A stretch of DNA of 63,983 nt, counting the filler, from Porpidia crustulata (taxonomy: Eukaryota), in assembly GCA_964255105.1 (NCBI GenBank). It is 3 parts of 3 records of this genome, joined end to end, with 100 filler letters (N's around TTAATTAATTAA, not from the genome) between each part and the next. Parts side by side here need not be neighbours in the genome. Positions count along the whole stretch, not along the records: positions 46,523 to 63,983 come from CAXUWE010000219.1; 2 more parts are not named here. One strand, given 5' to 3'. The notes beneath the pieces are model-generated. The model made no database searches and was not told the origin of the DNA. It was given only the letters and a program-made list of their open reading frames with translations. The first letter of the stretch is position 1. Every line of letters begins with the position of its first letter. Shown piece after piece: positions 23,179-63,983 of this stretch. The position numbers were made by a program, and so were the translations under genes.

Positions 23179-23278
23179 NNNNNNNNNNNNNNNNNNNNNN
23201 NNNNNNNNNNNNNNNNNNNNNNTTAATTAATTAANNNNNNNNNNNNNNNNNNNNNNNNNNNNNNNNNNNNNNNNNNNN
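23179..23278. other. Assembly gap with artificial TTAATTAATTAA linker
   Basis: 100-nt block of Ns with a central six-frame stop linker. Confidence 0.97.
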
Positions 23279-43995: not shown

Positions 43996-46422
43996 ATGGT
44001 CTCCCAGCCTCCACCCTACGAAGATGCTCCCGATATACCGGTAGCAGCTTCTGAGAGTAAATCCGAGAGCCCTGGATCGCAAGAAAAGAATCCGAAAGAC
44101 TTTATGAATGAGAAGGATGTTTTTGCAACTGAAATTGACACTACTCCCCCAATCTACAATGCTGAGGGCGACGACCATTTTGGCGAGACTGCGGTCCTCA
44201 CGACAGCGAAAGATCTCGTGACGCATATCATCCACGTTCAAGATGATCCTTCGCTGAACCCTTGGACATTCCGCATGTTTTTTATCGGTATGGGAAAATA
44301 CCCTGCCTCTTTAAATAAAGCTGATAATCTCTACTTACAGGCATCGGCTTGGCAATCTTTGCTTCTGTCCTTCAAGAGATATACTACTTCAAGCCGCAAG
44401 TAATCTACGTCTCCGTCGTTTTCCTAGCAGTCACTAGCTATATTCTTGGAGAGGCGATGGCCTTTTGCATTCCTAGGCGGGGACCCATAGGTCGCTTCTT
44501 GAACCCCTCCCCTTTCAATTCCAAGGAGCACGCTGCGATGGTCATCATGGCTTCTGCCGCGGCTGCAAACGCTGTTGCCACCGAGATATTAGCAGCGCAG
44601 AAACTATACTACAACATGGATCCCAACCCTGGCGCAGCCATCTTCCTGGTGATAGCCGCTCAGCTTCTCGGATACGGAATCGCAGGTCTACTTCGGGGAA
44701 CGCTAGTACATCCGACCAAGATGCTATGGCCGATAAACTTACCTGTCAACACCATGCTGGAGACGCTTCACAGGGACAAACACGAGACCAAGAACCGCCT
44801 CAAGGTCTTTTACATTATCTTTGCCGTCATCTTCGTATGGGAGACACTCCCAGAGTATATGATGCCTGTCCTGACGGGGGTTTCTATCATGTGTCTTGCC
44901 CAAAAGAATAGTATGGTCTTTACAAATTTGTTTGGGGGCTCCCAGGGCAATGAAGGCCTTGGCTTTCTATCCCTTTGTCTTGATTGGCAATACATTGCCG
45001 GACTAGGGTCACCGCTATGGGTCCCATTGCAAACCTTGACAAACAGTTTCATTGGCTACCTGGGAGGTATAATATTCTTCATGGGGTTGTATTATTCGAA
45101 TTCGTGGCGATCTCAAGACTTTCCTTTTCTTTCTCAACTGCTATATGACACCAGCTCAAATTCAACCAATTTCGCTCCGTATAATGTATCACTTATCCTT
45201 ACACCAAACAACGATATCGATCCCGCCGCGCTGAATGCCAACGGGATTCCCTGGCTTACTGGAACATACATTGGATATCTGATTACAACAAATATGGGCA
45301 TGGCAGCAACATTTGTTCACATGTTTCTGTGGAACTACGATGATGTCAAGGCAGGCTGGTCCTTTTTCACGCTTGCAAATCTTAAGAGTCTCTCGAAACC
45401 ATCGACTTGGATGTTTTGGAAAGGGGGTAAAACCAAAGAGGAGCGGAAACTAGAAACTCTGAACGACGAAGCAATCGATCCTCATTACAAACTAATGGTG
45501 GATTATGACGAGGTACCTCAGTGGTGGTTTGCCATGGTCTTGCTTCTTAGCTTCTCTGTTGGTTTAATTACCTTGTACTTTGTGAATTCAACAATTCCGT
45601 GGTGGGGATACATTGTTGCCAACCTACTCTCGGCAATCATGATTCTATTCTTTGGAGCGCAGATGGGGATGACTGGATTCCAGTTTAATCAGCAACCATT
45701 GATTCAGATGCTTGCTGGATATATCCACCCGGGTAAACCGCTCGGTAAGCAGCAATCCCTCACCTTCCTAACTTTAATACTTGCACGAACTTACCTCGTT
45801 CAAAGCAAACATGTACTTCACCGTCTTCGGCTTCAACTCCATTCAACAAGGTCAGCTCCTGCTGCGCGATCTCAAACTCGCCCAGCTCGCCCACCTCTCC
45901 CCCAAAGCCACCTTCACGGCGCAAATGACCGGCTGCATCATCGGAGCCATCTTCAACTACGTAATGATGACGAGCATTGTCACCAACCAGCGCGCCATTT
46001 TAACCTCCATTGCCGGCTCTAACATCTGGTCCGGGCAAAATGTCCAGCAGTACAACACTCTCGCCGTTGCTTGGAGCATCGCCGGCGATCTCTTTTCCGT
46101 TGGCGCACGCTACCAATGGGTGACCCTAGCCTTCCTCATCGGCATCGCCGTTCCCATCCCCTTCTGGCTCCTGCATCGCTACACCCGCCACCCCTTCTTC
46201 GCCTACATCAATCTCTCCATCATCCTCTGGTACATGGGTTTCCTCTTCGTCGGCATCAACAGCGCCGGCGTCAGCTACTACGCGCTCGGCTTCGCCGGCC
46301 AGTTCTGGCTGCGCCGCTACCACCCGCGCCTATTCGTCAAGTATAATTATCTGGTGTCGGCGGCGCTCGACGGCGGCACGCAAGTGTTGGTGTTTATCTT
46401 CAGTTTCGCGGTGGATGGGGGG
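43996..46422 (+). CDS. OPT-family oligopeptide transporter, 3' end lost in the gap
   Basis: DDPSLNPWTFRMFFIG, NPSPFNSKEH, QLLGYGIAGLLR, NEGLGFLSLCLDWQYI, YDEVPQWWF, PGKPL-ANMYF, DLKLAQ and KYNYLVSAALDGGTQ. Introns at about 44288-44340 and 45744-45805. Confidence 0.93.
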
Positions 46423-46522
46423 NNNNNNNNNNNNNNNNNNNNNNNNNNNNNNNNNNNNNNNNNNNNTTAATTAATTAANNNNNNNNNNNNNNNNNNNNNN
46501 NNNNNNNNNNNNNNNNNNNNNN
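46423..46522. other. Assembly gap with artificial TTAATTAATTAA linker
   Basis: 100-nt block of Ns with a central stop linker. Confidence 0.97.
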
Positions 46523-48236
46523 TCATTATATAGACATAGGAGAATCGTGCCAAGAGCCTATGCTCCTGTTGCTCTGTAGACAGATCCTACAGAGCGTGCC
46601 TGTAGTTACACACTACCCGCGTAGCTATAAGAACAGGGTTCGGGCGGGTCTAACATCAAACCCCAACCCCAACCCAAAAACTCTATCAAAACCTAAACAT
46701 AATCCAAAACCCACTTTCAACCATCACCCTCTAATAACATTATTTCAAAAAATCATTTTCACAACAAAATGACATCCAAAATCCACGAATATTCCTTCGT
46801 TAGCCAACGTATTGACGTGTTAAAGAGTTGATCAAGAAATGTTAATGATTTCAGGACTGTCAAGGTGTGTTGAGAAAAGTTTTCCTTTTTTTTTCTAGTT
46901 AGGGTTTAACATCAGATTCACGAAATTCAAGAACCGAAAAAAATTTAATTAAAATCGTCAATCGGGCAAGGCACGTTCTGCATGATTTAGAGTAATCCAT
47001 ACACGCGTGCCCTGCCTTTTCACCCCTTTCACCGCTAACCGCCCCCAGCTCAAAACATTCATCCAAAGGCGCTTCTCTTGTTCTTGAGATTAATCACAAC
47101 ATCACACATACTCATCCGCTCCGGTTTCCGAAAAACATCTCCTCCCCGTCCCGCGATCTTGGCCGTTTTCGCTTCCGGTCATGCTCGGAAGATGGACTTC
47201 AAACCCCGGTCCGATGATACGCGCAGCGAAAGTAAATCGCGTTTGGTTCCTTGGCGGAGAGGTGCCTCGCTATGCGTGTGTGTGCGGCTTTGTGGACTTC
47301 GAATCAAAGCCGAAATGGGTACCCGTGCATTCCGGGTGTGGTGGCAGCGAAAAAGTGTTGTGATATGACGCATCGGGTGAAAGGGTAGATGATGAGGATT
47401 GAAAGGAGATGTGCAAGGGAAAGAACGGCTGGATTGAAGATTCAAGGCTGGGAATGAAACGAGAAAAATTAATTTTTAAAGCAAGGATAAGAAGGAACGA
47501 AGCAAGGGATAATATATATGCTCTTGGCTCTCGTGAAGTCATGGATTCGTGGAGACGACTTGAAAATACTCAAAATCCAACCACTTTCTCGAAACGCGGC
47601 TGACGGCTATGCGATATGGAGCGGGGTCCGCGTTTTGACACATGGTCATTCAGAGTGCATACAATATCGAGCAGTGGGGAACGAATTAGAAAACGCTACT
47701 GTAAGCGGAATGTGATTCGAGATCTCCGGTCCTTCAGTAGAAGTCCATGAAACAATTCAAAATCCAAGGGCAGAAGAATTAAATTAGAAGAAGCGACGAA
47801 GAAAAAATGAAGCAGAAGAGAAGTTCAAGAGAGACAAACTTGGAATGAGATTCAAAGCAAGCGCAAATGAGATGCATATGATTGGATCAAGCGATAATGT
47901 AGCAGCTCACTTATTGACAGCCTGTCAATGGAAGAAGCAAGGGTAATTGACGCCGTCGACCACTAGGCCTACAGAATCGGTGGACTCGTAATGTGCCGAT
48001 TAATAGGAGATTCAGCGACAGCCATGCCAGCAGGTAGGAAGAGAAATTGTGCTGAGGCGGAGATACCCCTGGCAAGCTAGTAATGTTGTCATTGATTCTG
48101 ATTCGCGGTGAAGGGATCGTATCTGTAACGTGACGGCGAGCCAGTAACGCAGTTGAAACTGGGACTTGTTCTAAGAGCTACCGTAAGTCAATGCGACGAT
48201 ATTGCCTTGCCGTGTTTAATCAAGGTATACGTACTT

Positions 48237-49648
48237 TCAGAGCCTTGATGCTTTTGGCCGCGCCGCGTTCACTGGCATCTTGACAGCGTCGATCCAAGCC
48301 TTGCTCATCCGTAGCATACCATCATCCGACTTCTTACTTCCATGCTCACGAATGAACGTCTCTTCATCAAGCCATCTTCCAACCATCTCTGTATCCAATC
48401 AGCAGTAGCATCCGCACACTCATCTGGCTGCTCAAAGACCAAAAGATGGCCGGACTTTGGCAGTACTTTCTTTTCTACCTTACCCTCTGTCACACCTCCA
48501 TTACCACCAACACCAACGCCAGTCGCTTTGACCTTCTTATCCTGGAAATGAGGTGGTGATAATGGGCTTTTGCCGCCAAAGACCCACAGCACGCTTGGGC
48601 GGAGCTGAGGGAGATTTCGCATGGTGATGAGGGATTCGGGACGGGATGAGTGGTTTCGCAACTCAATCACAGGGTCCCAATCGGGGAGTAGCAGCCGATC
48701 AAGTGTGACGTTCTGCGGATCAAAGCTGATTTGTGCGTAGCCCCATGCTTCTTGGTGTTTGCTAGTGGTCAATGTGACAGAATCTGGAGGGACCATTTTG
48801 TTCTTGCTAGGGTCGTAGAGAGCCGTCGGTACGGCTTGCAGGCCATGTCGTAGATACTTGGCAAGGGCGCGCTGGTCCCATGCTGAAAAAGCCTTCCGCA
48901 GTTGCATCTCGGCTTTGACTCGCGAATCCCAGACGTCACGTCGCATGGTAGATCCAAGTGCAGGGTTTGGTCCGCCATGATTCTCATCCAATATCACAGG
49001 TTCAATGAGTACTAGTGTCGACAGGAGACGAGGATGCATGATGGAAAGATGCACTCTGTAAAATTTGAATTGACATCGTCTGGATTTGGTTGACGAACGT
49101 ACAGTTGCGCGCAGCCCATACTATGAGCTATACCAATCAGAGGACGAGGCATGTCAAGTCGAAAGTGATTTATCATGTGAAGCAAATCACGAGAATGATC
49201 GAACCAAGATGCTATTCAAAAGCGTTAGCATCTCATTCAACGCAAGTGATGTGTTCGACATGCTGCTGTCTCCTTGCACATCCTCGTTCAAAGTACCACT
49301 AGCACCCTGATTCGAGCTGTCTGCCACCCAAACACTTCGTATATGTACACCACAGGATCTTAAACGAGAATAAAGCTCATCCCAAAAGGGCTCATAGGTC
49401 TCCTAAAGCTGCGTTTAGTACTAGCATCTTTGTTTGTAGACGTTACAATTAACTTTCGGAAACCCATTACCGTGCACGCCTATAATGGTCACAGCATTTT
49501 TAGGAACTGGTTTCGACACATCCAAGGGGATATATTGCTTGATAGAGAGTTGCAAGGCGTCTTCTTGGCAGTACCTTGTTGCATTTGGATATTCTCTGAT
49601 GTGCTGCCCATGGATGACATGCTCGACTGTGGTGAACGCTGTAGCCAT
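48237..49648 (-). pseudogene. Alpha/beta hydrolase (AflJ/'toxin biosynthesis protein' type) with a late frameshift
   Basis: EHVIHGQHIREYPNAT, HGNGFPK-ETYEPFWDEL, the nucleophile elbow IAHSMG and GHLLVFE. A 1-nt loss at about 48381 diverts the C-terminus; the restored frame ends ...RPKASRL*. Confidence 0.8.
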
Positions 49649-50002
49649 CAGACAACGTAATGAACATTCCAATGGTGTTGATGATATCGCGGGAAGCTCT
49701 TTGCGAAGCTACATATACGTTTAGAATGCCGGTTCCAGTTGTTACATGGCTGAATCACATGATTGGAATAACCGATAATCCATATACTCTAGCCTTGCGC
49801 GGTTATGGTTTGCTACATCGCGACTTTCTTCGAACCTCAAACATGGGAACAACGGACGTTACAGCATACAGCAATAAGATATCCATGCAATTCTTGAGGA
49901 CAAAAGTACCAAGCGCGCCTCGCTAATTTCATCCGCTTCGAGGCACCCACTTCATGAGATTGAGATTGAGATTGCTTCGCAGACCACATTCTTATGCTAA
50001 TT

Positions 50003-51859
50003 TTATGTATACACAATCTCTATATCATTCTCGTAGAGCTGCAGCGATTGTACGCGCGACACACTACCCTTCGCTGTACGTTCGAAGGGCTTGTTCGTCT
50101 TTGCAAATATAATCAACTCCTCGGACAGCTGCACGGATGGATGACATTGCGCGTTGACCTTGTCTAAATATGGTCGAAGGCTCTCCCGCAAGGTCCTGCG
50201 TCCCGCCTCGGATTTTGCCTTCGTCTGAGCATCTGGGATGAGCTCAACGAGAAGCACAGGCTTAGGTCGACCATGACCACCAATCAGCGCTGCCTTGACA
50301 AGCCGGTTGCGCTCGATTTCGGGTTCGAGGGTTGACGCATGTAAGCCTTCGCCGTGAGCCAGGTAAACATAGTCATCTGTGCGTCCTACAATTTTCCATA
50401 GGCCTTTGCGTTCAGAGTGCTCAACCCAAAGGTCGCTAGTCTCATATCGAGATTTCTCTGTATGTACCATGAATACTTGCTGCATAGCGGCGTATTCTGG
50501 ATGGCGTACAAAAATCAACTCATTCAGATTATCAAGTCGTCGCTCAAATCGTACTCCCACAAAGGGTTGAAAGGAAATGTATTCCCAGTCTTTAGTACTC
50601 TCGCGAAGCTTAACGAAGTATCCACCTGCTTCGGTACTACCGATAGAAGGAGACACTCGAACATATGGAATAAGCTGTGCACCAGTGCTTGTGCCTAAAG
50701 GTGCGCCACAGTAGTGTATGTAGTCGAGACTCCGTAAAGCCGAAAGGCCAGAGGGATCTAAGCAGAGCTGGTCAATGAGAGCCGGAGGAAGTAAGGCTCC
50801 GTTCGGATGGCCATACTTGATGATATCCCGAACAACGTCCGGTGTTGGTGGTAATGCTGACGGTCCTAGGACGACTACGGTACGTATGAAAGCACTCATG
50901 GATGTAATCATAAGCATACCTACGAACTTTTACGGGATCGATTAGTAAGTCATAGTATTCGAATGACGGATCACATACATGAAGTGATGGAAGAGGCGTA
51001 TACCATCTCTTGAATGCATACTGGTGAATGTGGGTCTCCTGAATGTCTCTCAATCCGGCGGCCGTACCTGGGATTGCCATCATCCTGAAAGTATAGGTAA
51101 TGGGCTTAGGGTAACCTAGCGTTTAATGAGTCCAAGGAAGATACTCCATCTATTTGACCAGGACTGACCTGTCGTGCCTGAGGTGTGAAAGACAAGCCAA
51201 GAGTCATCCCTACCATCGTCCCACGACTTCTCGTAAAGCACAGGCTCCGCTGGTGTATCGCAAAGTAGCTTGTGAAGCTCGGGAGCGTCAATTGGCCTTA
51301 CGCTTGGCCCACGCCTTATAATCTCGTCTACAACAGTCGACATGCTCGGAGATCTTACGTAGACTTTGCAATCCTTCAAAGACAAAATACGAAGCTGAGC
51401 CTCAGGAGTGACGAGAGAGGAAGGCAGAACCATCTGAGTTCGATCGAGGAATGACAAATAAGCCCAACACGTTATATTGACAATTTCCATATCTGTCATT
51501 ACAGAACGTGGTGTACCTTATGGAAACAAAGGAAGAACAACGCTACTCCCTACCTTGCCCAACTTTCCAGCCGCAATGGCCAGGATGGGGTATCGGAGAT
51601 CTTTGGGGCCAGCGTAGGCGAACGATTGGAATGACTCGGAAGATGGAGGCAAGCTTTCACGCAACCACTGAACTGCACGATTGACAGCGTTCCAAAGTTG
51701 GCCACACGTGACTTCTTTGTAGCCTTTTGAGAGATCGCCTTCGTCAACTGGTATCGAAACCCAGGTGCTGTTGGGTTCCTGCTGTGCTAATTCGTCGATG
51801 ACGGACAGAATGATGCGCCGACCATGTCTGACGTTTGGAATAGGAAGTGCATCAGTCAT
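50003..51859 (-). CDS. Stand-alone adenylate-forming enzyme (NRPS-like A domain without T or R domains)
   Basis: Four exons splice in frame. Motifs are VFHTSGTTGYPKPI (A3), IGSTEAG (A5), YETSDLW (A7), GRTDD (A8) and TAKGSV (A10), with the stop immediately after the A domain. Confidence 0.85.
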
Positions 51860-52190
51860 GGTTTCACTGGACCGTGGTCTCAAGTATGTGATCTATTGTT
51901 GATGGCCGAAGGTTACATAGCACTCATGGATCAGGAGATTATGCGAGCGACGAGGGAACGAAGGAACTAGCGGGGCAGGACGTAGGTAAGTTTCGCTGAA
52001 TGTTGATCGACTTACCAGTTATTGTTGCGGCCAAGTACTAAAGAGCAACAGCAGGTTTGTCCTGATTATACACGGTCACTTAAGCAGATGCATGGACGAA
52101 AACTTCGTTCCCGTCAATCTCCAGTATCTTTATGCCTACTTGCCTACCCACTAAGAGTGCATCTTTCAATTCCACCCTTGGCCCTTTATT

Positions 52191-53463
52191 CTAAAAGGAA
52201 TGATTGACGGTATCACCCATCTTGCTTCTCTCCATAGAAGTCACCTGTATCTCTGATTGCATACGAATATCCACCATACTTATCGGACTGATTCCGCCAC
52301 ATTCTACACCTTGTTCTATGCTCGCTCTATTGCCCACGTATTCCTTCAGATTATGAGACTTGAAATCAGAATCATCTTTCGAAGATATTCTAGATAACGT
52401 TCGTCGCCAAGGACCTCGGGACTCGACTGTCGCGACTCGCTTTTTTGAGCCATTGAGAAGTGGCTGAAAGAAGGGGACGGAGGCCAATCAGACAAGCTGC
52501 AGAAAGGTACATGCCGCTCTCTACCAACGTCCAGCTGGACAACGAAACATCGGTCCCTTAAACTTATTAGTAAAATCTAGAAATTGACTGAAGGTTGACT
52601 TGCAGGTTGGGTCTTTTCTCGAAGATTGAGCATCGCTGAAGAAAGAGTGTGTGCGTATGCATGATGCGACAAGGCCCCTGAGTAGGTGAGCATTTATCAA
52701 CGCAATGGACTGAACTAGTCACTGACAGACTGCCTGAGAGGAAGGCCAGTGCAATGCCTGCTTTCCGTGCCCTTGAGGCCTGAAGCTTCCATATAGTATA
52801 CATAGGAATAACCATAATGGCCACATCCCCGAGAATGTTCAGGATTCCGAGCTCCTAAAGAAGGCAAACAGATCGATGCATTTGGCACCCGAGATCCTAG
52901 TGTTCCAAAGGGACACAATGGGCCTGCACTCAAGAAGGCCAGTAATGATTTGAGATACGACGAAGCCAACAAGATAATACAGAAGTATCCAACTACACAA
53001 TCTTGTCACTCCACTGGGAAAAATCCTGAGATATAAGGCGACTATTGATATCCGCGACAATGCATTGGAAATTGCAGTGAACCAGCTAAGAGCATAGACC
53101 AGCTTGCCTCTCGTCACCAAGGTGTGTGGACTTCTTGTGACTACGGCTTCCACGTGATGACCAGCTCCTCCCTCTGAGACAAGAACTGTAAAAGGCGTTA
53201 GGATGAGCGACCAAAGCATCGCAGATAGGGTAGCACTTACCGTAGCAAACTATACTGGCGCCCACAACCAGGATCCAGGCTACCGGCAGAAGAAATTCAT
53301 CCCAACCTCGTGTAGCTGGGGTCAAGACACGAACGTATAACCTCAAGGCCACCAAGAGCGTTGCAATGATCAATATGAAGGTGATAGCAGCCAGAAGCTG
53401 GCCAGAGCAATTTTCTTCTAGATAGGTAAGAGTAAGTCCTTGAGATTCTGAAATAGTAGCCAT
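52191..53463 (-). pseudogene. PTH11-like integral membrane protein (fungal rhodopsin domain), frameshifted
   Basis: ALRLYVR...GWDE, SRISIVALYLRIF, ECRPIVSLWN, NILGDVAIMVIPM..IWKLQ and WTLVESGMYLSAACL. Frameshifts at about 52849 and in the A-run at about 52441-52446. Confidence 0.8.
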
Positions 53464-54265
53464 GATAGTTGTTGTGAATAAATCCCTCCGCCATGATCGA
53501 ATAAGACCCTTGATTGAATCGAGATGTCAGGCCATCCCATGGAAAATGATGACTGGAATACATCAAGTATCTCACCAGGATGTAAGGATTTCGATGGCAC
53601 GACGGCATAACGGCTCTGCTCACCGAGGGTGCGACATAGAGCTCGAGCGAAGGATTCAAACTAGGGACGGTACGGCAATTCCGCCGGCGCACGTCGACAC
53701 GCCACCATACCCTGCGTTCATCCTATCGGAATGTTGGAGCTGGAGGCATAGCCAGTCGGAGTCATCATCGTGCCTCATCCACCAATCCAGGGCTAGCTGC
53801 AGCGGAGGCTTTCCGTCGTTCATTACACACAGGGGAAATGATCTTCCACACAACCAAATACTGCAGCGATTGAATGAGGAAGAAAGACTGGAAGATCGTA
53901 CAAAGCTCTTGTTTGCCTTCCTGTATCAATCTCAGCTTGTGAAACCGGGCCCGTCGAATCCTCCGTGCGGCGTAATCGCATGCACCGATGCACGTATATC
54001 ACACCAATACAATCTCTTCGGCGGAGCTTGCGTGGAACAATAATGGATGAGTAGATGGGTGTAAGTGGAGCACGTTTGTAGGTGCGCATAGAAATCGTTG
54101 AGTCAATCTGTCACTATATCATCCGATGGACTGTTTACTAGGAGTCATGTAAAGATTTCAGGAAACTCCCATGGCCACTGTTCCACTCAGGTCGCGATCA
54201 GAATAAGATCGTCATCCGATCTGCAGATAAATCCTGTGCTGCGATCCTGGCATCTGGAGTAGATA

Positions 54266-56579
54266 CTACTCCAATGATGGAACATCTTCTAGAACACGTA
54301 TGAGAACCGGTATGATTGTACCATCCCGTAAGGCGCGATATAATACCCCGGTGTAAGTTCCTATAATAGGGGCTCGCTCGGCAGAGTTTTCCCCATTCGA
54401 TTCATCGTTCGCGTTGTACGCCCCAAGACGAGGGGTGGTGATTCTTGGAGTACTGAGAAATGGGATCTTCAAGGTATGACGTACGAATCCGTGGAGCAAC
54501 TTCGACGCTCGCCCCAGAACTGCAGTCGCATCACCGTGTGCGAGATACAAGTCTCTATGCAAGCGCCATTCATTCTGCAGAGAGGACTGAATGGGTTCCG
54601 TGAAGTCTTACACGACCTGGAGTGGGTCCGTAAAAGTTTTGAAGCTATGGTGATCCATGAAAGCAGATCGCAAGCCTTTGGATATTGACTTGAAGCGGCA
54701 ATCCGCGTCCATGTGTGTGGTGTTATCAAAGGCCTTTAGAAGATATTGCCACAACATCTGTTCCAAATCATTCTCTGTCGTAGAGGCTTGGGAGATTGTT
54801 GGGGAAAGCTGAAGCGCTTTTGCCACCAGTGACGAAAATTGAGGCCGGTAGCTATCAAAAAACCGAATGTTCATCGCACGGAGATCCATCGCCTGACAAA
54901 CAGTAAGCAGATGAGCTGCAACCAACTCAAAAAGTATATTGATGCTTGTCTCGGTATAGCGTGCTGAGATGAGAGCAAGGGAGTTCAGAGCTTGATTTCC
55001 CATCTCTGCCGATTGCACGTGATTAACAGGGCCAGAGAGGTAGCCGAGTTCAGCTTGGAGAGCTGCAATATATATATCTATGGGTTTGAAGATTCCAGAC
55101 GTACTCGGATCCTCGCCAACGAGGTTCGGTGGTAGTCCTCGATTTGTTGCGGGGTTGATGATCTCAACGCATTGAGTGAAGAACATACGACCAATCGTCT
55201 GCATGGCTTGTCTCGTCTTTTCCATCGCGGATGCCACGGCTTTGGCCTGGAAGTTGCCTCCATGCAGAGCATTTCCATCGGGATCTATGAGCGGATTATC
55301 AGTTGCGGAATTGCACTCGATAGTAATTTGCTGATACGCCAAGAGAAGATCTTCTAACGCAGGACCAAGCCATTGAGAAGCCGTGCGAATAGAATATCTA
55401 TCCTGGCGCAAGGATCCATCAGTTCCGTCGTTGACTTGTGCAAGCTTGGAGTCTTTAAGAAACGCCAAGATGTTCCTCGCGCTTTCAAACCTTTCAACAT
55501 TAGCCGCAAACATGATGCATTGCTTATACAGCATACCTGACCCGGATGCGGACGACTTTCAGCAAAAAATGGATGGAAGCTTTCCATGGTACCATTTAGA
55601 GCCTCAACGCTCATCGCAGTTAATACCTGCGCAAGGACTGCAAGATTGTGGACGTCAAAAATCGCGAGCGCCCCTACACTTGTCGAGATAGCCGTCCCAT
55701 TCACAATGGCAAGGCCTTCTTTTGGTCCCAAAGCTACAGGAGTCAGGCCTCGTTGTTTGAGAGCATCATCAGCATAGAGATCTTCTCCAGTGCTTGAAAG
55801 TACCCGAATGGTAGACTTTCCCTGGATGACTCCACTTATGTATGCCAAGGGATTCAAATCTCCCGAGGCTGATATGCTGCCACGTAGAGGAATCATAGGA
55901 ATGAGGTCATGAAGCAACAGGTCTTGAAGCCTATCAACAATGGTGGGGGAAACAGCAGAATAGCCTTTGATTAATGAGTTGATAGGAATGAGAATAGCTC
56001 CACGTGCCCACGTCTTTGGTAGATACTGAGATTCCGGTGTATTCTCACGGGAGAAGCCATGGCGATATGCAGCAAGCTGGTCTGGTAGCAGTCCTACATA
56101 GTGGTCACGAGCACCTGGCGGAAGGATACCGTAACTCAATTCTCGCGTCAGGGTACGCTGGAGGCGCTCTGTGGCCGTGGAACGGGTGTCTGCGGATGCT
56201 CCAAATCCAGTATTAACACCTGTGCTGTACTTCAGCGACACTTGTGGTTGGAGGCGCATGCTCATGTCTGAATGCAAGCATGATTACCGTATATGACGTC
56301 TCCTTTCTCAAGTCTTCGATGAAGTGCATTTCTGCTGGCTTCCAAAGACTCAGATGCAGATTGGTCGACATGCGATTGGAAGCCGTAGCTGCAAAATGCG
56401 AATCAGTGTCGGCTATCATCAGGCCATGTGCTAACGAACCGCGAGACACAGACGATTTGAGCGATGTCCAGATGAAGACCGTCAAGGTCCACTTCTCGGC
56501 GGTTGCTGCTGAGCAGACGGCCTTAGGTCTGCCATTGTTGCAGAATCGTGTCGCTGTGGAGTTTGTAACCCGAAGCCAT
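54266..56579 (-). pseudogene. MIO-dependent aromatic amino acid ammonia-lyase (PAL/TAL family), disrupted
   Basis: IY-GVNTGFG, GSISASGDLNPL (MIO ASG), KEGLAIVNGT, RPHPGQ, QDRYSIRT, TDNPLID, HGGNFQA and AEMGNQALNSLALISARYT. In-frame TAA at 56523-56525 and 54608-54610, plus an extra T at about 55488. Confidence 0.9.
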
Positions 56580-56923
56580 TATCAATTTAGTGTTGACAAG
56601 GGCCTTCTATCGTAAGTAAAGATAGGCTGATTGGCTTGTTAGTAGTTGCTGAGTCTTTTTTTGATGCACTGAAGGAAGCTTGGCAGCCCCATAAGCTACA
56701 TATCTGATATGCTTTAGCGAGAGAGAATTAATAAGATTAGGAAGAAAGAGGAAGAATATTCGCTAAGGCTGAAGTTGACGTTTTGCATCGAACATTTCAT
56801 CCTATAAGCCTTGTCACGTACGAACTTCTGTATTCCCCACCCAGAAGGACGTGTATGCTACAGGAAATAGCAATCTTCTCTATGCGATGTAATGATCTAC
56901 GAGTACGCTGCTAGTTGGGCTAA

Positions 56924-58616
56924 TCATGCTACATCATCCCTAGGTATCAATACCACTTTGGCTCCGTTTTTGGACCTACAAGCCATTGATAGCTGCTCGA
57001 TCCATGGACCGTCGTCTTTGCTTTCAATCGACTTGAACTCCTGTACCATTCGCACCAGAGTATAGGCCACCTCGCGCATTGCAAAGTCTTCTATCAGTTC
57101 GTAAGCACGACAGTGCTCTACTATAGTCATTGGAGCTCAGAACTCACGCCCAAGGCAATTCCTAGGTCTCTTGAGGAAGGGGACAAACTTCTGCAAAATA
57201 TAAGAGGATGCCGCCCTAATCCTTTGGGAATTAGTACATACCCAAAGCTGCTTTTCATCAAGCCATCTCTCTGGTCGGAATTCTTCTGCATCTTCGCCCC
57301 AAGGATCGCGGCGCCGATGGAGAGCGAATATGCTAAAATGAACCATAGTACCCTTGGCCATGAAGAGGGTCGAAGAGCCATCAGAGCCACCGTCAGTCGG
57401 TAGTGTGGTGTCCCTTAAGGCGGTTCTGGAATTGCTCGGAACGACCGGATGTAAACGGAGACCTATGCATGATTAATCACGATACCCTTGTTATGTAGTG
57501 CAGGGCGACCCCACTCTCGTAGATGCAATTTTGAACATATTTCAGGCCCCCCAATTGATGTGCATCTGGCGCCTCACTTCCCAAGTGCTGGACTCCATCA
57601 CGAAGATTTTGCCAAATATCCCGGCGTTTAGATAGCATGAAGAGCAGGTTGACTAGCAAAGCTGCAGTGGCATCTGTTCCAGCAAAGTATAAGGTGAGTA
57701 GCTCATCCTGTAGAACTTTCCTATCTTGGGTCACGGAACTGAGCTTTTGGAGGACGTTGTCCGGCAAGGAACAACTGACACTAGCAGCACCGAAAGAAGT
57801 CAAGGAATCTGTTCTGTTTTGAAGAGCATTGTCCACGTATTTCTGTATGTATTGGTGGACAAGCTTCACGCTCTGAAAGAATTTGCGTTGTGAGATGAAA
57901 TCAGACAGGCTGCCTAAAAGCCAACGAAATTCGCAACCTGCTTGCAAGTCGTGGATAGCTTTCAGCATGCCAGCATCGAGCAGCGCAGGCCGTTTGAGAG
58001 AACCGACAGACTCTCCAAATAGGAAGTCAGTAGCTATGTCGGCTGTTAGTCGATCGAATAATAGCGCCAGATCAATGATTGAACCATCATGTGGGATGGC
58101 CCTGAGGAAGTTTGACACATGAGGCTCGAATATGTGTACTTCAGCTGTCTGACCACGCTGAAAGCAAGTTCGCAAAAGGTCGCGAGATGATCTCCAAGGA
58201 ATGCCATCCACTTGAAAGATAGAACTTCCGAGTAAAGGTGCAAAAGCTTTTTGGCGCCGCGAGCCGATGCCATAATCCTCAAAATGAGTGAAGAGAACAG
58301 CCTTGATGTTTTCTGGTTCAATAGTATTGATAACCGTAGACCCAAAATGACGGGATGAGAAAGTAGAGCCGTGTAATTGATGCAGCCTCTTTTCACGAGC
58401 TAGATAAGTACCTGCTTTGCTCGCCCGAAGAACATCCAGGAACGGGCCAACGCTGGATGCTAGCCCACTGTAATCAAAAGTAAATGACTGATAGCAACGC
58501 GAACTCTCGGATTTTCGACAAATTGAAGCCTTGGATTGGTATATGAAAAACACTAGAATGACCAAGGGCAACGCTAAGCAGATCTTCCAATCTTGACTTA
58601 GTAGGCTTATCTCCAT
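56924..58616 (-). CDS. Cytochrome P450, CYP52-clan-like; heme motif altered
   Basis: TIEPENIKAVL, FAPLLGSSIFQVDG, DIATDFLFGES, FAGTDAT (I helix), ESLR after splicing, FRPERW and FLKRPRNCLG. Four exons. Confidence 0.88.
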
Positions 58617-59313
58617 TTTTGGTGGACGAGAGAGACACTTACAGAGTGCTTCCGGAGCAGGTTGATTCAAACGAGTCGATGCAAGGCGTGGTCCAGCAGC
58701 GTGCCCAAGAAAGTGAAACTAATGCTTCAGCCAACGAACAACTATATCTGCCGGTCGGCTCGAATGACCAGGGATATGATGACAGTCGGGTTGCATTGCT
58801 AGATGGGACTCAGGTATAACAACCAGATGGATGCACTCTCCGTACGGAACGACTTCCGTTGCCAAGTTTCATATTGAGCCGTACGCGATCGGCATACATG
58901 ATAGCAGCATCGCAGAATCCTTCGAAAGTCTCGAGTCTTGAGTGAACGTGATCGGCAGTAGGATTACGCTGCCGTCAGCTGCTCTGACATGAGCTTATCG
59001 GGTGCCATAACTTAGACCTCATCTCTATAGGACTGTGGCGGCCACTCAAGTGTACACGGACGGATGATGGATTGGTTATTGGAAAGGGCGGAGTGGAGTA
59101 GTACAGCTTATAGCAGGTGACTAAGCGCTCGATGAATACCTAGGTAAGCAATCTGATTGGTGGGTGGTATATTGCTTGATGTACCTCCCATCACCGTTCC
59201 TTAGACTACCTACCCATAGGCTTTGCCAATATCTTACGCCATTGCGCATGCATACAATCTTACGGCCCGACAGCTCTTGGATCAAGAGTGTCTCATGGTG
59301 TCCGAGAGGTCGG

Positions 59314-59345
59314 TCATTGCCTCATTGCCTCATTGCCTCATTGCC
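59314..59345. repeat. 8-bp tandem repeat (tcattgcc)x4
   Basis: Seen directly in the divergent P450-DMATS intergenic region. Confidence 0.9.
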
Positions 59346-59981
59346 TAGCTAAAACTCAGCCTTGATCCACACTCTAACAATTGCCACCAGGGTACCGGTT
59401 AGATACGAGATTATTTCAGCGTTTCAAGAACTGTATTTCATATACTCTATTGGGTATCGTATGAACGAGCCACTGCACCATGTCTCGTGGCTGAGCTCCT
59501 AGCAATACGTGCCGGATATCGTTCCGGAAAGGCTTTCATCCCAAGTCGGCGGCATTGCGCTATGTTGGGCATGTCCTGCCAGAAAGCGCTGCTCTGCCGT
59601 AGACGGTAGGATCATGGCTCAGCTAATAAGTCGGTTGGGATCTGAGAAGGTCCTCCTCCAGCTATACTTCTCGAAGGAACGACTAGATGTTTACGAATCT
59701 TCTCTCTAAGGACGTCTTTGCCTTGATCTGACACGGACGTTCTCAGTCTTGATTGGACTTCAGTGTGCGAGAGCTGACGTGCTCAGAAGCTCGTGTCGAT
59801 TACTTTTCACGAAAGTTCCAAGATCCTTGTCAGTCCCAAGCACAGTACATCGCAAAAGGATACATGAACTTAGACTTTCAATGAAATAGTTCGAACCTCG
59901 AAAACGGTGAACTCCACTTCCATGATAGGATTGAGCATCTACGACCCCTAATCGGGTACTCAATTCATTTTCAACGACCTG

Positions 59982-61181
59982 ATGAAGCGCCCGACGCCCA
60001 ACTTGTGGCTGGACACACTTGGTTCGGGGCTATCCATCCTCATGGACGAAGCGGGCTACGACGTAGAGACACAGGACGCTGGCCGAAAATTTTTTTCCCA
60101 ACACGTTGTGCCATATCTTGGCCCCTGCCCAGTCAAGGGTCGGCCCCGGCGCTGGAAAAGCTTCATGACCGACGACTTCTCCAACCTGGAATATAGCTGG
60201 AGCTGGTCAAGCTCGCCCAAAATTCGATACAGCTTTGAACCCGTAGGCGCCAATGCCGGAACAGCGTGTGATCCTTTCAACAGGTCAGAATCTTTAAAGT
60301 GTGCTAAAGAGCTACGCTCCACCATTCCTGGGTCCGACTGGCGTCTCTTTGACTCCTTTGCTGGTAGTCTCCACGACTCAACGAGAGATGCAGGCCTGGC
60401 GTCGAACAACAGAAGCCTTTCAAGTCCGTCTTCTATTTCTCTGGCCATAGAGGTTGGCCGAAGAGAGACAATGGCAAAGGCGTATCTGATCCCGGTCCGG
60501 GCTGAGCAGACCCGAAAGTCACGGCTCTCCGTCCTTTCTGAAAGCATAGAGAAAGCTCCAATCGAGTTACCGGCCTTCAGACCCCTCGACGAGTTCATCC
60601 GACAGCGGCAAAAGACATCCCCTTTGCACATTATAGGCATCGCCGTAGACTGTATCGACCCCTCAATCTCAAAATTAAAAATATACGTTCGCTCTCAAGA
60701 AACCGCTTACACCAGTGTCTGCTCTATCCTCTCTCTCAACGGAAGAATAAAGGCCTGGACCGACGAAACCACCCGCGAGCTATGGGAGCTCTGGACCCTC
60801 GTCCTCAGCCTCCCCTCTACCCATTCAGTCCACGATCCGCTGGTTCCTGGCACACCTCAACATGAAACTTCAGGCATCCTATACAATTTCGACATCCAAC
60901 CGACCAACCACATCCCATCAAGCAAACTATACATACCCGTGAAACACTACGGCAAGAACGACCGCGCTATCGCACAGGGCTTGCTGGATTTCCTGTAACA
61001 ACGCGGACGGACCGAACATGCCGGGAATTTCCTGAGAGCGATTGAAAGTCTTGGCGAGCACAGACGGTTGGAGGACGGATGCGGGCTGCAGACGTATATC
61101 TCGTGCGCGGTCAAGAATGGGAGGTTGGATCTTACGTCGTATATCTCGCCTGAGATTTACCATCCCGGCAGATGGCGATGA
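59982..61181 (+). pseudogene. DMATS-family aromatic prenyltransferase (resembles tyrosine O-prenyltransferases) with one premature stop
   Basis: WKSFMTDDFSNLEYSWSW, IRYSFEP, KAYLIP, AVDC...KLKIYVRS, GILYNFDI and KLYIPVKHY. After TAA at 60996-60998, the same frame continues QRGR...QTYISCAVKNGRLDLTSYISPEIY to TGA at 61179-61181. Confidence 0.88.
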
Positions 61182-62558
61182 CGGGGAAGGCATTTGCTTG
61201 AACGTTGATGCACCGCATTTGGAAGCCAAATACGATTTGATATATGATTACGTGGGTTGGCCAGGAAGTTTTTCCTTCTTCGTGTACGCATACAGAGCTC
61301 CACGGACCTGCCGAACATGTGACATTGTTCTTGGACAATGCCATTGATTCACCTCTCATACATATGATCCGTCCTCCATCCTAGCCCATTGCTCCGAGAG
61401 CGAGTTGCCCCGTCGCGACAAGCTCACGGCTCGGTATTTCGCGGCAGAAAGCCAAGTGATGCCTCGGCCGGACAGTAATTGTAGCAAACGAGTTAAGCCA
61501 TAGCTTTCGCGCCAGCTGGCGCTGGGGCGAGATTCGTGTTCCAGTTGAACTCAAGAGAACTAAGCGAAAGGAAGTTGATCTTTCCCGTAAAGACGAGCCC
61601 CATCCGTTATCAGATATTGATCTCAAAGGGCATCAGGATAACTCAGAATGACTAGAATTCCAAAATCGAAATGGAGCGGCGTTACGTCAAGGATATACGA
61701 AAAAATCCCTCCCAGAAACGTGCAATTTCACCCGTAAGTTTCACAATTTTTGCAGAAGTAAAAGCACTGCAATCATCGCGTACGAAGGTAGTCTTAGCAG
61801 AAAACCTTGACGAGAACCGTTTTATCCTGGCTAATCGTAAATGTGAGAGTTTTGCTTTTGTGCAGGTCTCGGCGCCGGCGAAAGGGGGATCGATATCTGA
61901 TAGGTTGGATGTGGGTTTTGGTTCGGAATCCGTGTGTACTTTTTTCGAGATCTTTAGATTGATCCATCACGCACCACGACGGTACAAGGCACTTTTCATC
62001 CTAGAAGCATTTTCCATCTCATCTCTGCTTCTCAACGGACAGCCTTCCGATCATCGACGCCATTGTCTCCGGTCTCTTCATCTTCCTCATTCCACTCGTC
62101 TTCCCGTGCTGAATCTGCCGTTACTCATCTCATATCATCAGCCGCTTCGGCATCGTTGGCTGTGATGCTCACAGCCTCGTTCTCATTTTTCTGCATAAGT
62201 GAGACTGAGGAAGATCATTAGAAATATTTCGCCTGTCGAGACGCAATGGGCAACCCCGAGTGCATAGCTCTGCTTCCTGATCTGGATAAATCCACACAAC
62301 CCTCGATGAAACCCCTACTAAGGTCAAAGTCCAGTGGGCTATGAGAATGATGGCTGTATTAGACGGCGAGGGCAAAATGATGGGTTGTTAGAATAATGAA
62401 TCTCCTGAAATTCAGTAGTAAATTTGGAGGGGGGAATTCGTGATCGGTTTTGATTTGGGTGGTCCGTTGAGCAAGTAGTGTACCCTAGCAGAACATTGGG
62501 CGCGTCCTCACGTGCACGCAAATTGTCCGCGTCTCATGGCCACCACCAACAACCCACA

Positions 62559-63723
62559 ATGTCCTCCAAAGCAGAATCGTCCTCAGCTGCGGCTGGTAAT
62601 AGCATCAAAGCCAATACCAATAGTGCCGCCGCAGCCTACGACTTGCCATGGTCCGTAAAACAATCCTGATTCCATTATAGGCAAATGATCTGACAATCAC
62701 AAAGGGTCGAGAAATACAGACCAGTGTACCTCGATGACATAGTCGGTAACAGCGAAACCATTGATCGGTTGAAGATCATCGCGAGAGATGGGAACATGCC
62801 GCATGTGATTATCTCGGGGATGCCGGGGATCGGCAAGACGACATCGATACTATGTCTAGCGAGACAGCTCCTCGGCGATGCGTACAAAGAAGCCGTCCTC
62901 GAGCTCAACGCCAGCGATGAGCGAGGTGAGCCCCACGACCCCCTACCCACCGTTCCACCGAAGCTAACCCTCTGAACCAGGCATCGACGTCGTCCGCAAC
63001 CGCATCAAAGGTTTCGCCCAGAAAAAGGTCACGCTCCCCCCGGGCCGCCAAAAACTCATCATCCTCGACGAAGCCGACAGCATGACTTCGGGCGCCCAGC
63101 AGGCCCTGCGCCGCACCATGGAAATCTACTCCACCACCACCCGCTTCGCCTTCGCCTGCAACATGTCCAACAAGATCATCGAACCCCTGCAATCCCGCTG
63201 CGCCATCCTGCGCTACGCCCGCCTCTCAGACGCCGACATCGTCCGCCGCGTCCTGCAGGTTGCGGAAGCCGAACACGTCGAATTCACTGACGACGGCGTC
63301 GCCGCCCTCGTCTTCAGCGCCGAGGGCGACATGCGCCAGGCCATCAACAACCTGCAGTCGACTGCGGCCGGCTTCGGCCTCGTCAGCGGCGAAAACGTCT
63401 TCCGCGTCGTCGACAGCCCGCACCCGGTCAAGGTGCAGGCCGTCATCAAAGCCTGCCACGAGGGCCGCGTCGACGAGGCCGTCGCGGGTGTCGGCGAGCT
63501 GTGGGAGCTTGGTTACAGCAGCCACGATATCGTGAGCACGATGTTCCGCGTCACGAAGAGCGTCGAGGGCCTGAGCGAGGGCGAGCGCCTCGAGTTTATC
63601 CGCGAGATTGGGTTTTGCCATATGCGGGTGCTCGAGGGCGTGCAGACGCTGGTGCAGCTGTGGGGGTGCGTGGCGAAGCTGTGCCGGTTGGCGATGAAGC
63701 CGGGCTTGTTCGTGGTCGATTGA
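62559..63723 (+). CDS. RFC4: Replication factor C small subunit (yeast Rfc4 orthologue)
   Basis: [46 protein letters not shown] and LQSRC. Two introns. Confidence 0.95.
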
Positions 63724-63983
63724 GTTGGTAGGGGTGATTTTCCCCGTGGGGGAGGACCTTTCCGTCTGGCAGTAGTTTTCATTTCGTAGAGGGAGTTGGG
63801 GTGTCAGGTTGCATGCAGTGGGGAAAAGGAAGAGGAGAGTTGGCCCTGTATGGCCTTGATCAAACAGGGAGAATCTCGGGGGGCAGGCGGCTGCGTAAAG
63901 CAAGATGCGCGGTATCTTCTTGCCGAACACTATGCAACCCATTGCGCCAGCAACGCCGTCGCTGGCGTCGAGGAGGAATATGG

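Follow-up and report, generated by a model that had tools for sequence, protein, structure and literature searches.

A recently decayed six-gene cluster in Porpidia crustulata, probably a copy of an ascomycete prenyl-tyrosine pathway

The window analyzed here is a stretch of 63,983 nucleotides from Porpidia crustulata (GCA_964255105.1), in which six genes form an N-free block at 48237-61181 (48.2-61.2 kb). This region is probably the recently pseudogenised relic of a six-gene cluster without backbone synthase that is conserved in ascomycetes and would have encoded an ancestral prenyl-tyrosine pathway. Five of the six genes are damaged, four by premature stops or frameshifts and the fifth, encoding a cytochrome P450, in its heme loop.

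Results

The N runs of the window are located at 23179-23278 and 46423-46522, and the contiguous stretch 46523-63983 contains zero N. To the left of the block an OPT transporter is found across a gap, to the right RFC4 (62559-63723, plus strand), which serves as boundary and as intact control gene with three exons, canonical GT-AG introns and neither stop nor frameshift. A Pfam scan of the ORF pieces gave a family match in 10 of 18, namely Abhydrolase_6 (48305-49120), AMP-binding_C_3 (50003-50929, E 8.2e-21), Fung_rhodopsin (52567-53249), Lyase_aromatic twice (54608-56283, E 1.5e-65 and 8.6e-59) and p450 twice (57137-58718), all on the minus strand, and Trp_DMAT (59952-60998, E 9.6e-88) and the RFC domains Rep_fac_C and AAA (62968-63723) on the plus strand. 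None of 16 additional small ORFs within or beside the region had a Pfam match, including two that overlap the region between the P450 and DMATS genes (58562-58819 and 59760-60029), and the window yielded neither a PKS nor an NRPS domain. The six genes are thus present in the order hydrolase, adenylating enzyme, PTH11-like protein, ammonia-lyase, P450 and DMATS, with the P450 (minus) and DMATS (plus) genes diverging from an intergenic region at 58617-59921 (1305 bases from ATG to ATG in the gene models) and the remaining four genes all on the minus strand. In these points the first-pass annotation, which had described six genes on a gap-free contig bounded by RFC4, a divergent P450/DMATS pair beside co-oriented genes and the lack of a backbone synthase, agrees with the Pfam matches, the N-free stretch and the gene models. 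Its bounds are exact to the base, the hydrolase stop of the ancestral frame ending at 48237 and the DMATS stop at 61181. It had not stated plainly that some of the genes are broken.

The DMATS-type gene (59922-61181, plus strand), similar to tyrosine O-prenyltransferases, is a single-exon pseudogene, colinear in a single tblastn segment with the intact 420-aa protein P0001; further 420-aa orthologues are P0398 and P0399, and identity to the three close intact orthologues is 88-91%. Premature TAA codons are found at 59949-59951 (codon 10) and 60996-60998 (codon 359). In 68 aligned homologues S (11) and Q (6) are commonest at codon 10, with no residue in 30, and R (26), Q (11) and K (11) are commonest at codon 359. 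Residue 173, corresponding to the FgaPT2-K174 site, is Ser in the window and Phe in 64 of the 68 homologues; this site is Phe in all Tyr-O-prenyltransferases (PMC11443524, section 6). At the FgaPT2-Q343 site the window protein has Lys, as do 67 of 68 homologues; the equivalents of E89, R100, K187 and K259 are kept. The earlier idea of tyrosine O-prenylation is supported at the level of the family, which carries the Tyr-O-prenyltransferase signature. Of the solved structures, DMATS1 (8DAY) is the best match, and a homologue from Ramalina farinacea shows 55% identity. In relative-rate tests with the nearest outgroup the window sequence had 20-23 unique changes and its three sisters 6-9 each (chi-square 5.1-7.5), whereas with more distant outgroups the excess was not significant (13-16 vs 6-12 changes).

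The P450 gene (56924-58616, minus strand; exons 58616-57515, 57462-57242, 57190-57148 and 57090-56924), supported by the p450 match, the gene model and the alignment, has an open frame of 510 aa. Judged from the alignment, the heme loop is damaged despite the open frame: the Cys-ligand loop reads K448-R449 in the window and G-G in relatives, with G at residue 449 in 44 and at residue 448 in 39 of the 48 homologues that have a residue there (63 aligned). More distant relatives carry the source labels CYP52A12 or alkane hydroxylase.

The aromatic amino acid ammonia-lyase of the PAL family (54266-56579, minus strand; exons 56579-56440, 56388-56288, 56219-55537 and 55490-54266) is a pseudogene according to the two Lyase_aromatic matches and the homologue alignment. 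It contains TAA stops at codon 19 (56525-56523) and at 54610-54608 and a +1 frameshift caused by an extra G at 55490, directly past intron 3; alignments with homologues continue over the two stops and past the shift in frame, and the read-through model has X at the breaks. The MIO-forming ASG triad is present. The lyase falls into a group of 18 of 121 sequences (SH-like support 84) that holds all six lyases with known cluster context; lyases of Xylaria telfairii and Apiospora arundinis, the xte1 and aar species, fall in the sister group, although these tree rows were matched to xte1 and aar by species only and may not be the cluster lyases. The first-pass annotation had compared the PAL with those of the squalestatin and strobilurin clusters.

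The PTH11-like membrane protein gene (52191-53463, minus strand), assigned by Fung_rhodopsin, tblastn and relatives, is a pseudogene whose frame shifts by -1 at 52848/52849 and by +1 in the A-run 52446-52441, and the window frame ends at a stop at 52392-52390. The Fung_rhodopsin profile positions 21-141 and 143-194 match in two different frames that meet at 52848, and the Myotisia homologue gives a tblastn segment extending exactly from 52848 to 52441 in a frame of its own. The MpaH'-like alpha/beta hydrolase gene (48237-49648, minus strand; window-frame exons 49648-49454, 49402-49264, 49211-49103 and 49055-48305, coordinates partly counted by hand), assigned by Abhydrolase_6, a solved relative and the indel seen against relatives, is damaged by a 1-nt deletion at 48380/48381, which shifts the last ~47 codons. 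In the ancestral frame the stop lies at 48239-48237 and is preceded by a C-terminal -SRL, a peroxisomal signal that the frameshift strips off. A conserved block at intron 2 is retained only if the donor is GC. Among solved structures the acyl-CoA hydrolase MpaH' (7DBI, E 1.4e-26) matches best.

The stand-alone adenylate-forming enzyme (50003-51859, minus strand; 543 aa; exons 51859-51554, 51433-51169, 51115-50979 and 50926-50003), supported by the gene model and AMP-binding_C_3, is apparently the sole member of the six that looks intact. Its three introns of 120, 53 and 52 nt are GT-AG, and it shows 3 changes at columns otherwise invariant among 28 other sequences, which themselves range from 0 to 6. 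The family profile comes closest to aryl- and fatty-acyl-CoA ligases, with 4-chlorobenzoate:CoA ligase as best match (E 2.4e-14). A PTS1-like terminal tripeptide is absent from the enzyme and from all 30 homologues, so it may not be peroxisomal.

In other fungi the DMATS, P450, lyase, PTH11-like and adenylating-enzyme genes are co-localised. This supports the cluster proposed in the first-pass annotation. In section Nigri of Aspergillus, in Myotisia and in lichen fungi, the gene models for the DMATS, P450, lyase and adenylating-enzyme orthologues are consecutive or nearly so. Examples are A. homomorphus (RAL10367, 10372 and 10374), A. saccharolyticus (PYH40575, 577 and 579) and Myotisia, where KAK2734198 (DMATS), 199 (PTH11-like protein fused with the adenylating enzyme) and 200 (lyase) follow each other. 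By accession or locus tag DMATS adjoins the P450 in A. fijiensis, A. brunneoviolaceus, A. aculeatus, A. indologenus, Mycoblastus sanguinarius and Teloschistes peruensis. Fused gene models join lyase and P450 in three species and lyase and DMATS in Xylaria curta, the DMATS part of the latter being 32% identical to the window DMATS.

Discussion

The DMATS/P450/lyase triad has its counterpart in the ppn cluster of Penicillium polonicum, which forms penipratynolene (Liu et al., bioRxiv May 2026, PMC13232330); for this core, the earlier statement that the gene set is not a characterised cluster no longer applies since that preprint appeared. In ppn, tyrosine is converted to O-prenyl-tyrosine, edited by a P450, deaminated by a dedicated lyase to an O-alkyl-coumarate and then taken on to the 4-hydroxybenzoate, the last step being left to host enzymes (PMC13232330). 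Both sets lack a PKS or NRPS and group an ABBA/DMATS-type tyrosine O-prenyltransferase with a P450 and an ammonia-lyase. In ppn only, a further P450 as well as a methyltransferase, an oxidoreductase and a BBE-like enzyme are described, while the adenylating enzyme, hydrolase and PTH11-like gene occur in the window only ('adenylat' is found 0 times in PMC13232330), and the window copy is broken. PpnA is ~30% identical to SirD, whereas the window enzyme is DMATS1/SirD-like; from this branch and the 32% identity of the Xylaria fusion it is probably not a PpnA orthologue. In the nse and xte2 clusters for sinuxylamide B (Nemania serpens and Xylaria telfairii) the tyrosine O-prenyltransferase likewise adjoins a prenyl-editing P450, but the third gene is a deamination-blocking N-acyltransferase and a lyase is not described in the text drawn on (PMC13232330). 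Lichen DMATS enzymes from Ramalina intermedia and Acarospora strigata are 4-O-dimethylallyl-L-tyrosine synthases; with these, SirD, TyrPT and DMATS1 the window protein shares the DMATS fold and signature-site residues (PMC11443524), and the Acarospora gene also adjoins a P450. It differs from all of them by the Ser at the Phe site and by its two premature stops. For the hydrolase, MpaH' was described as peroxisomal acyl-CoA hydrolase with the PTS1 GKL that ends beta-oxidative shortening in mycophenolic acid biosynthesis (10.1101/524025, as far as drawn on here). The likeness, by sequence, covers the alpha/beta-hydrolase fold and a C-terminal PTS1; the MpaH' substrate, a farnesyl-derived chain on a polyketide, is different, and the mycophenolic acid cluster, as described in that source, has no dedicated adenylating enzyme.

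In the ancestral pathway L-tyrosine would be O-prenylated by the DMATS-type enzyme, and the neighbouring CYP52-like P450 would oxidise a terminal methyl of the prenyl group, maybe with demethylative allene or alkyne formation as for PpnB and NseB. The clade-specific ammonia-lyase would then convert the O-alkyl-tyrosine to an O-alkyl-p-coumarate, which the stand-alone adenylating enzyme is predicted to activate, most likely as CoA thioester. Two carbons would be lost through housekeeping peroxisomal beta-oxidation, and the PTS1-bearing MpaH'-like hydrolase would release an O-alkyl-4-hydroxybenzoate. No step in this scheme is assigned to the PTH11-like membrane protein. We thus infer, by analogy, that CoA activation and thioester release flank beta-oxidative shortening. 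The first steps as proposed earlier, tyrosine O-prenylation and deamination to an O-alkyl-cinnamate, were shown experimentally in the analogous ppn cluster (PMC13232330). The remainder of that route, in which the O-prenyl-cinnamate is activated, transferred by the hydrolase to an amine or alcohol and oxidised late by the P450 without chain shortening, is rather doubtful. The adenylating enzyme lacks a PTS1, and stand-alone adenylating enzymes without carrier domain can form amides directly, both of which speak for it, as does the occurrence of natural O-alkyl-tyrosine/cinnamoyl amides, the sinuxylamides being N-acyl O-butynyl-tyrosines (PMC13232330). However, acylation in nse is the task of a distinct N-acyltransferase family rather than of a hydrolase, and the ppn P450 precedes the lyase, taking the free amino acid O-prenyl-tyrosine as substrate, and did not convert the coumarate or the benzoate (PMC13232330). 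The likeness to the thioesterase MpaH' and the ancestral -SRL favour thioester hydrolysis after chain shortening over amide or ester transfer.

That DMATS-P450-lyase and PTH11-like protein-adenylating enzyme-hydrolase are two independent modules, neighbours by chance in some lineages, is unlikely. Species of the A. fumigatus group have the adenylating enzyme, with no DMATS or lyase among the matches listed, so the two halves may be separable; in Penicillium malachiteum the clade lyase and an adenylating-enzyme homologue lie on separate multi-Mb contigs, and run X5 covers the left half (48000-53728) at a depth of 92 and the right half at 4, on separate contigs. Against this, A. homomorphus and A. 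saccharolyticus each have both halves inside a run of 5-8 consecutive gene models, the halves are consecutive in Myotisia (Onygenales, distant from the lichen lineage), one contig of A. uvarum carries both DMATS and adenylating enzyme, and both halves decayed jointly in the window. That the cluster is functional, its stops and frameshifts having been introduced by errors in sequencing or assembling a low-coverage (~10x) genome, is very unlikely. Three of the four indel lesions lie at short homopolymers (TT at 48380, A6 at 52441-52446 and GG at 55490), and run X1, with a depth of only about 10, may be the assembly's own data and hence not independent support. Its Logan contigs, an independent assembly, show 0 differences and 0 gaps across 48000-61500 (13.5 kb), which rules out assembler artefacts but not read errors. 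Four separate TAA substitutions cannot arise from homopolymer error, key sites carry additional missense changes (F173S in DMATS, GG to KR in the P450), and the DMATS branch is accelerated relative to the nearest outgroup. The frames of RFC4 and of the adenylating enzyme (1.6 kb coding) are error-free, so the assembly is not error-ridden in general. Three relatives (X4, X5 and X6, ~90% identical) have the frame-restoring state at all three visible indels, with one base more at 52848, one less at 52441 and the hydrolase base at 48380, in a comparison listing 40 of 1400 substitutions and 12 of 113 indels, with the four TAA sites and 55490 outside it. The pseudogenised copy of a conserved prenyl-tyrosine cluster thus remains the preferred reading; prenylated phenylpropanoids, suggested earlier as products, would not be made in this genome, as the copy in the window is pseudogenised.

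Organization of the cluster locus

Within 48.2-61.2 kb, six genes were assigned by Pfam as an alpha/beta hydrolase, an adenylating enzyme (AMP-binding_C_3), a PTH11-like membrane protein (Fung_rhodopsin), an aromatic ammonia-lyase, a cytochrome P450 and, on the plus strand and divergent from the P450, a prenyltransferase of the DMATS type (Trp_DMAT). The first five genes are all on the minus strand, no N occurs from 46523 to the end of the window, and to the right of the cluster lies RFC4, an undamaged gene of three exons joined by canonical introns, all in agreement with the first-pass annotation, which had described six contiguous genes on gap-free DNA next to RFC4 with a divergent P450/DMATS pair. 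The bounds it gave to the cluster are exact: 48237 is the end of the hydrolase stop codon in the ancestral frame and 61181 the end of the DMATS stop codon. The window is fungal; in protein searches, its proteins had their closest relatives in lichen-forming Lecanoromycetes. The description as a cluster without a backbone synthase was borne out within the ORFs scanned in the window, as Pfam detected no PKS or NRPS domain in the 23 ORFs scanned out of 45 of at least 120 aa left of 47 kb and none in 16 small ORFs from the cluster region and its surroundings.

An OPT oligopeptide transporter gene (43948-46422, plus strand) runs into the gap on the left and may or may not belong to the cluster; its Pfam positions 7-433 and 433-623 are distributed over two ORFs with an intron-sized space between them. 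Further to the left, ORFs on the minus strand at 36072-39377 encode DUF7708, the start of an NPHP3_N NTPase and many ankyrin repeats, which suggests a fungal NLR-like gene, and a second ankyrin-repeat ORF is located at 1289-2737. The two filler stretches between the joined records (23179-23278 and 46423-46522) are alike, each with two runs of exactly 44 N and 12 real bases between them, a form that taken by itself would point to masking or templating and not to scaffold gaps of estimated size. The Logan contig from the public run matching the window (X1) begins some 100 bases beyond the right end of the second stretch.

Lesions in the core genes

The DMATS gene is of the tyrosine O-prenyltransferase type (Trp_DMAT, E 9.6e-88) and is colinear in a single segment with P0001, an intact orthologue of 420 aa; together with two further 420-aa orthologues, P0001 is 88-91% identical to the window copy. 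In the window copy, which has 419 codons, TAA stops interrupt the frame at codon 10 and at codon 359, the latter removing the last 60 residues, and no uninterrupted ABBA-barrel frame is left. P0001 has Gln at both stop positions, while the wider set of aligned homologues shows varied residues there. Tyrosine O-prenyltransferases were described to share a Phe at the position of FgaPT2-K174 in all cases and a Lys at that of Q343 (PMC11443524, section 6). The Lys is kept in the window as K335, whereas the K174 position, mapped via FgaPT2, is Ser173 compared to Phe in 64 of 68 homologues, including all 12 nearest homologues shown. Judged by these residues, the DMATS family fits the tyrosine O-prenyltransferase signature and the window copy does not. 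The best solved relative is DMATS1 (8DAY), and the DMATS part of a lyase-DMATS fusion from Xylaria is only 32% identical. Two DMATS enzymes from lichens were reported in the same article to form 4-O-dimethylallyl-tyrosine, one of them encoded adjacent to a P450 (PMC11443524).

The ammonia-lyase was recognized by two Lyase_aromatic matches (Pfam, E 1.5e-65 and 8.6e-59), and its ASG MIO triad aligns with that of Rhodotorula PAL. Its frame is interrupted by a TAA at codon 19, by an extra G at 55490 causing a +1 frameshift immediately after a 46-nt intron and by a TAA at 54610-54608; homologues align across both stops and the frameshift, and no intact lyase frame is present. Two further candidates were discarded: an in-frame stop near 56405 belongs to a good 51-nt intron and does not count as a lesion, and an in-frame intron of 42 nt spanning the stop at 54608 was rejected as homologues align through this segment without a gap. 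Among 121 lyases compared in a tree, that of the window falls into an 18-member group (SH-like support 84) that includes all six lyases with a known cluster context, while lyases of Xylaria telfairii and Apiospora arundinis, in which the xte1 and aar clusters occur, belong to a sister group. The 18-member group is marked by TREL[S/G]YG where IRELHYG is usual. At approximately 56140, the residues aligned to the His-Gln dyad of Rhodotorula PAL, by which PAL and TAL are distinguished, are Glu-Leu. Reading this Glu-Leu as a selectivity switch was rejected, since most lyases of both fungal groups share it; in a motif tally the groups are separated only at the following residue, which is Ser/Gly in the cluster-associated group and His in the other.

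The P450 frame is open over 510 aa, and the Cys and Arg of the Cys-ligand loop are kept. The loop deviates from FxxGxRxCxG, with Lys448-Arg449 where relatives have Gly-Gly: among the 48 of 63 aligned homologues with a residue there, Gly is found in 39 at position 448 and in 44 at position 449. A search of solved structures gave weak CYP97 matches only (E 2e-8). More distant relatives are labeled CYP52A12 or alkane hydroxylase by their sources, and an attack on a terminal methyl group would fit these names.

Hydrolase, adenylating enzyme and PTH11-like gene

In the hydrolase, a 1-nt deletion at 48380/48381 removes the last approximately 47 codons, and because of it the PTS1-like end is lost: the window frame ends without PTS1, while the ancestral frame, the one predicted for all three relatives, has -SRL at its end. 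The translation shows a nucleophile elbow with Ser and a late His. The sole solved relative is MpaH' (7DBI; E 1.4e-26 over residues 24-248), which was described as an acyl-CoA hydrolase of peroxisomes, bearing GKL as PTS1 and halting β-oxidative shortening in mycophenolic acid biosynthesis (10.1101/524025). Intron 2 of the hydrolase (49263-49212) keeps a conserved block only with a GC donor; it is either a rare GC-AG intron or carries a mutated GT donor, i.e., a further lesion.

The adenylating enzyme (543 aa, three GT-AG introns) is the only cluster gene that looks normal. It shows three changes at otherwise invariant columns, compared to zero to six in 28 relatives, and its Ser/Thr/Gly-rich phosphate loop is intact. 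A search with the last exon as query, covering proteins of at least 540 aa, returned homologues of 540-576 aa composed of PF00501 and PF23562 only, the architecture of a stand-alone ANL enzyme that lacks T, C and R domains. The family profile is nearest, weakly (E 2e-14), to 4-chlorobenzoate:CoA ligase and fatty-acyl-CoA ligases. The PTH11-like gene shifts frame at 52848 and again in the A-run at 52441-52446; a 1-nt difference from relatives at 53131 was not counted as a lesion, as the window frame matches the Pfam profile on both sides.

The decay is not an assembler artefact and looks recent

On the evidence of these reading frames, the cluster copy in the window is a non-functional relic. 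Of the words sampled from the region, 98% are present in run X1, and its Logan contigs show zero differences and zero gaps against 48000-61500; this rules out an assembler artefact, though not read errors, as X1 may be the source of the assembly. The four independent changes to TAA are by their nature, as substitutions and not indels, excluded as homopolymer errors. With regard to the indels, colinear contigs approximately 90% identical to the window were found in runs from three relatives (organisms B, C and D), and at 48380, 52441 and 52848 all three carry the frame-restoring state (lesions among the 12 of 113 indels listed). Neither RFC4 nor the adenylating enzyme shows frame errors. Relative to the nearest outgroup, the window DMATS has 20-23 unique substitutions, whereas three sisters have 6-9 each (chi-square 5.1-7.5); two more distant outgroups give an excess in the same direction that is not significant. 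As few invariant columns are violated (none in DMATS, one in the lyase and one in the P450), the decay looks recent.

The premature stops at 59949, 60996, 56523 and 54608 are all TAA and compatible with CAA to TAA transitions. Repeat-induced point mutation (RIP) was not adopted as the cause despite this uniformity, because transitions between window and relatives are almost symmetric: sites with T/A in the window and C/G in the relative, against the reverse, number 386 vs. 354, 398 vs. 377 and 336 vs. 313.

Conservation in other fungi

Synteny was inferred from accession order, locus tags, contigs and fused gene models found in protein searches. In Myotisia sp., DMATS (KAK2734198), a fused PTH11-like and adenylating-enzyme model (199) and the lyase (200) are consecutive entries, and by accession order the adenylating enzyme, DMATS and lyase are close in Aspergillus homomorphus (RAL10367, 10372 and 10374) and A. 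saccharolyticus (PYH40575, 577 and 579). The divergent neighborhood of DMATS and P450 is kept as adjacency in at least six species, judging from accessions or locus tags: A. fijiensis, A. brunneoviolaceus, A. aculeatus, A. indologenus, Mycoblastus sanguinarius and Teloschistes peruensis. Fused lyase-P450 models are present in A. japonicus, Talaromyces amestolkiae and A. pseudonomiae, with P450 parts 47-64% identical to that of the window. Co-localization of the hydrolase is documented in three close relatives only. That orthologues are co-localized elsewhere, on which the first-pass annotation had made its proposal depend, is supported by these accession orders and fused models, with counter-examples: in Penicillium malachiteum, a lyase of the window's clade and an adenylating-enzyme homologue are on separate contigs, and the A. 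fumigatus group has the adenylating enzyme with no DMATS or lyase from this group among the matches listed.

In the run from one of the relatives (X5), the contig with hydrolase, adenylating enzyme and PTH11-like gene (48000-53728) has a depth of 92 and that with lyase, P450 and DMATS (53899-61449) a depth of 4, which suggests either two related genomes in the sample or the presence of the left half alone in an abundant organism. A metagenome scan with a lyase exon returned 14 loci, all lyase relatives of 43-57% identity; none of the 14 matched the other cluster genes at E 1e-5 (12 query pieces), a result uninformative on synteny.

Comparison with the ppn cluster and a possible route

A May 2026 preprint describes the reconstitution of the penipratynolene (ppn) cluster of Penicillium polonicum and also covers the sinuxylamide B (nse) cluster of Nemania serpens (PMC13232330). 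According to the preprint, PpnA O-prenylates L-tyrosine, the P450 PpnB oxidatively strips a prenyl methyl group to yield O-homoallenyl-tyrosine whereas NseB yields the butynyl ether, and the dedicated lyase PpnC deaminates O-alkyl-tyrosine and not phenylalanine or tyrosine. The subsequent shortening of the coumarate to 4-hydroxybenzoate is there attributed to host enzymes (PMC13232330). Like ppn, the window has a triad of prenyltransferase, P450 and lyase. In contrast, its prenyltransferase is of the SirD/DMATS1 type and not of the PpnA type, its lyase belongs to a sister clade, and three further partners are absent from the preprint, in the text of which "adenylat" occurs zero times. In its core, the cluster represents a variant of the ppn/nse type, and its intact orthologues are worth expressing. 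The first-pass annotation, which did not recognize the gene set as a characterized cluster, holds in that a literature search found no published description of the six-gene variant; for the core triad it does not. Likewise, its reading of a prenylated-phenylpropanoid pathway stands as far as the triad resembles ppn, and falls short in that the window copy itself is broken.

For the steps after the triad, the adenylating enzyme would activate the O-alkyl-coumarate as CoA thioester, housekeeping β-oxidation would then shorten the chain by two carbons, and the hydrolase would release O-alkyl-4-hydroxybenzoate from the thioester. We infer this sequence of activation, shortening and release from the likeness to MpaH', the -SRL end and the CoA-ligase profile. 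The route that had been proposed earlier, in which an amide or ester is formed instead of a shortened chain, is a live rival: a PTS1-like end is absent from the adenylating enzyme and from all 30 homologues, which is in its favor, while the thioesterase MpaH' as the hydrolase's only solved relative speaks against it. Returning to chain shortening, we tentatively regard it as possible, rather than probable, that the intact orthologues of close lichen-fungus relatives and of Aspergillus section Nigri encode a complete route of their own by which L-tyrosine is turned into O-alkyl (prenyl, homoallenyl or butynyl) 4-hydroxybenzoate, with the adenylating enzyme and a PTS1-bearing MpaH'-type thioesterase bracketing peroxisomal β-oxidation and with the CYP52-like P450 as a separately evolved prenyl-editing lineage accompanying a SirD/DMATS1-type prenyltransferase.

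Implications

Genome-mining tools would flag a DMATS ("indole") cluster in P. crustulata, yet this cluster is a relic. Concrete intact sets for expression are RAL10367-RAL10374 of A. homomorphus and PYH40575-PYH40579 of A. saccharolyticus. Natural products with an allenyl or alkynyl phenyl ether are rare, and the logic of their biosynthesis was resolved only in 2026. The locus shows that the triad can also contain a prenyltransferase from another branch and be joined by three conserved partners, i.e., the adenylating enzyme, the MpaH'-like hydrolase and the PTH11-like protein, and with partners it spans Lecanoromycetes and Eurotiomycetes. This provides a testable hypothesis for chain shortening, a step with no assigned enzyme, and, if true, the conversion of coumarate to benzoate, left to host enzymes in the ppn study, would have a dedicated step in the six-gene variant.
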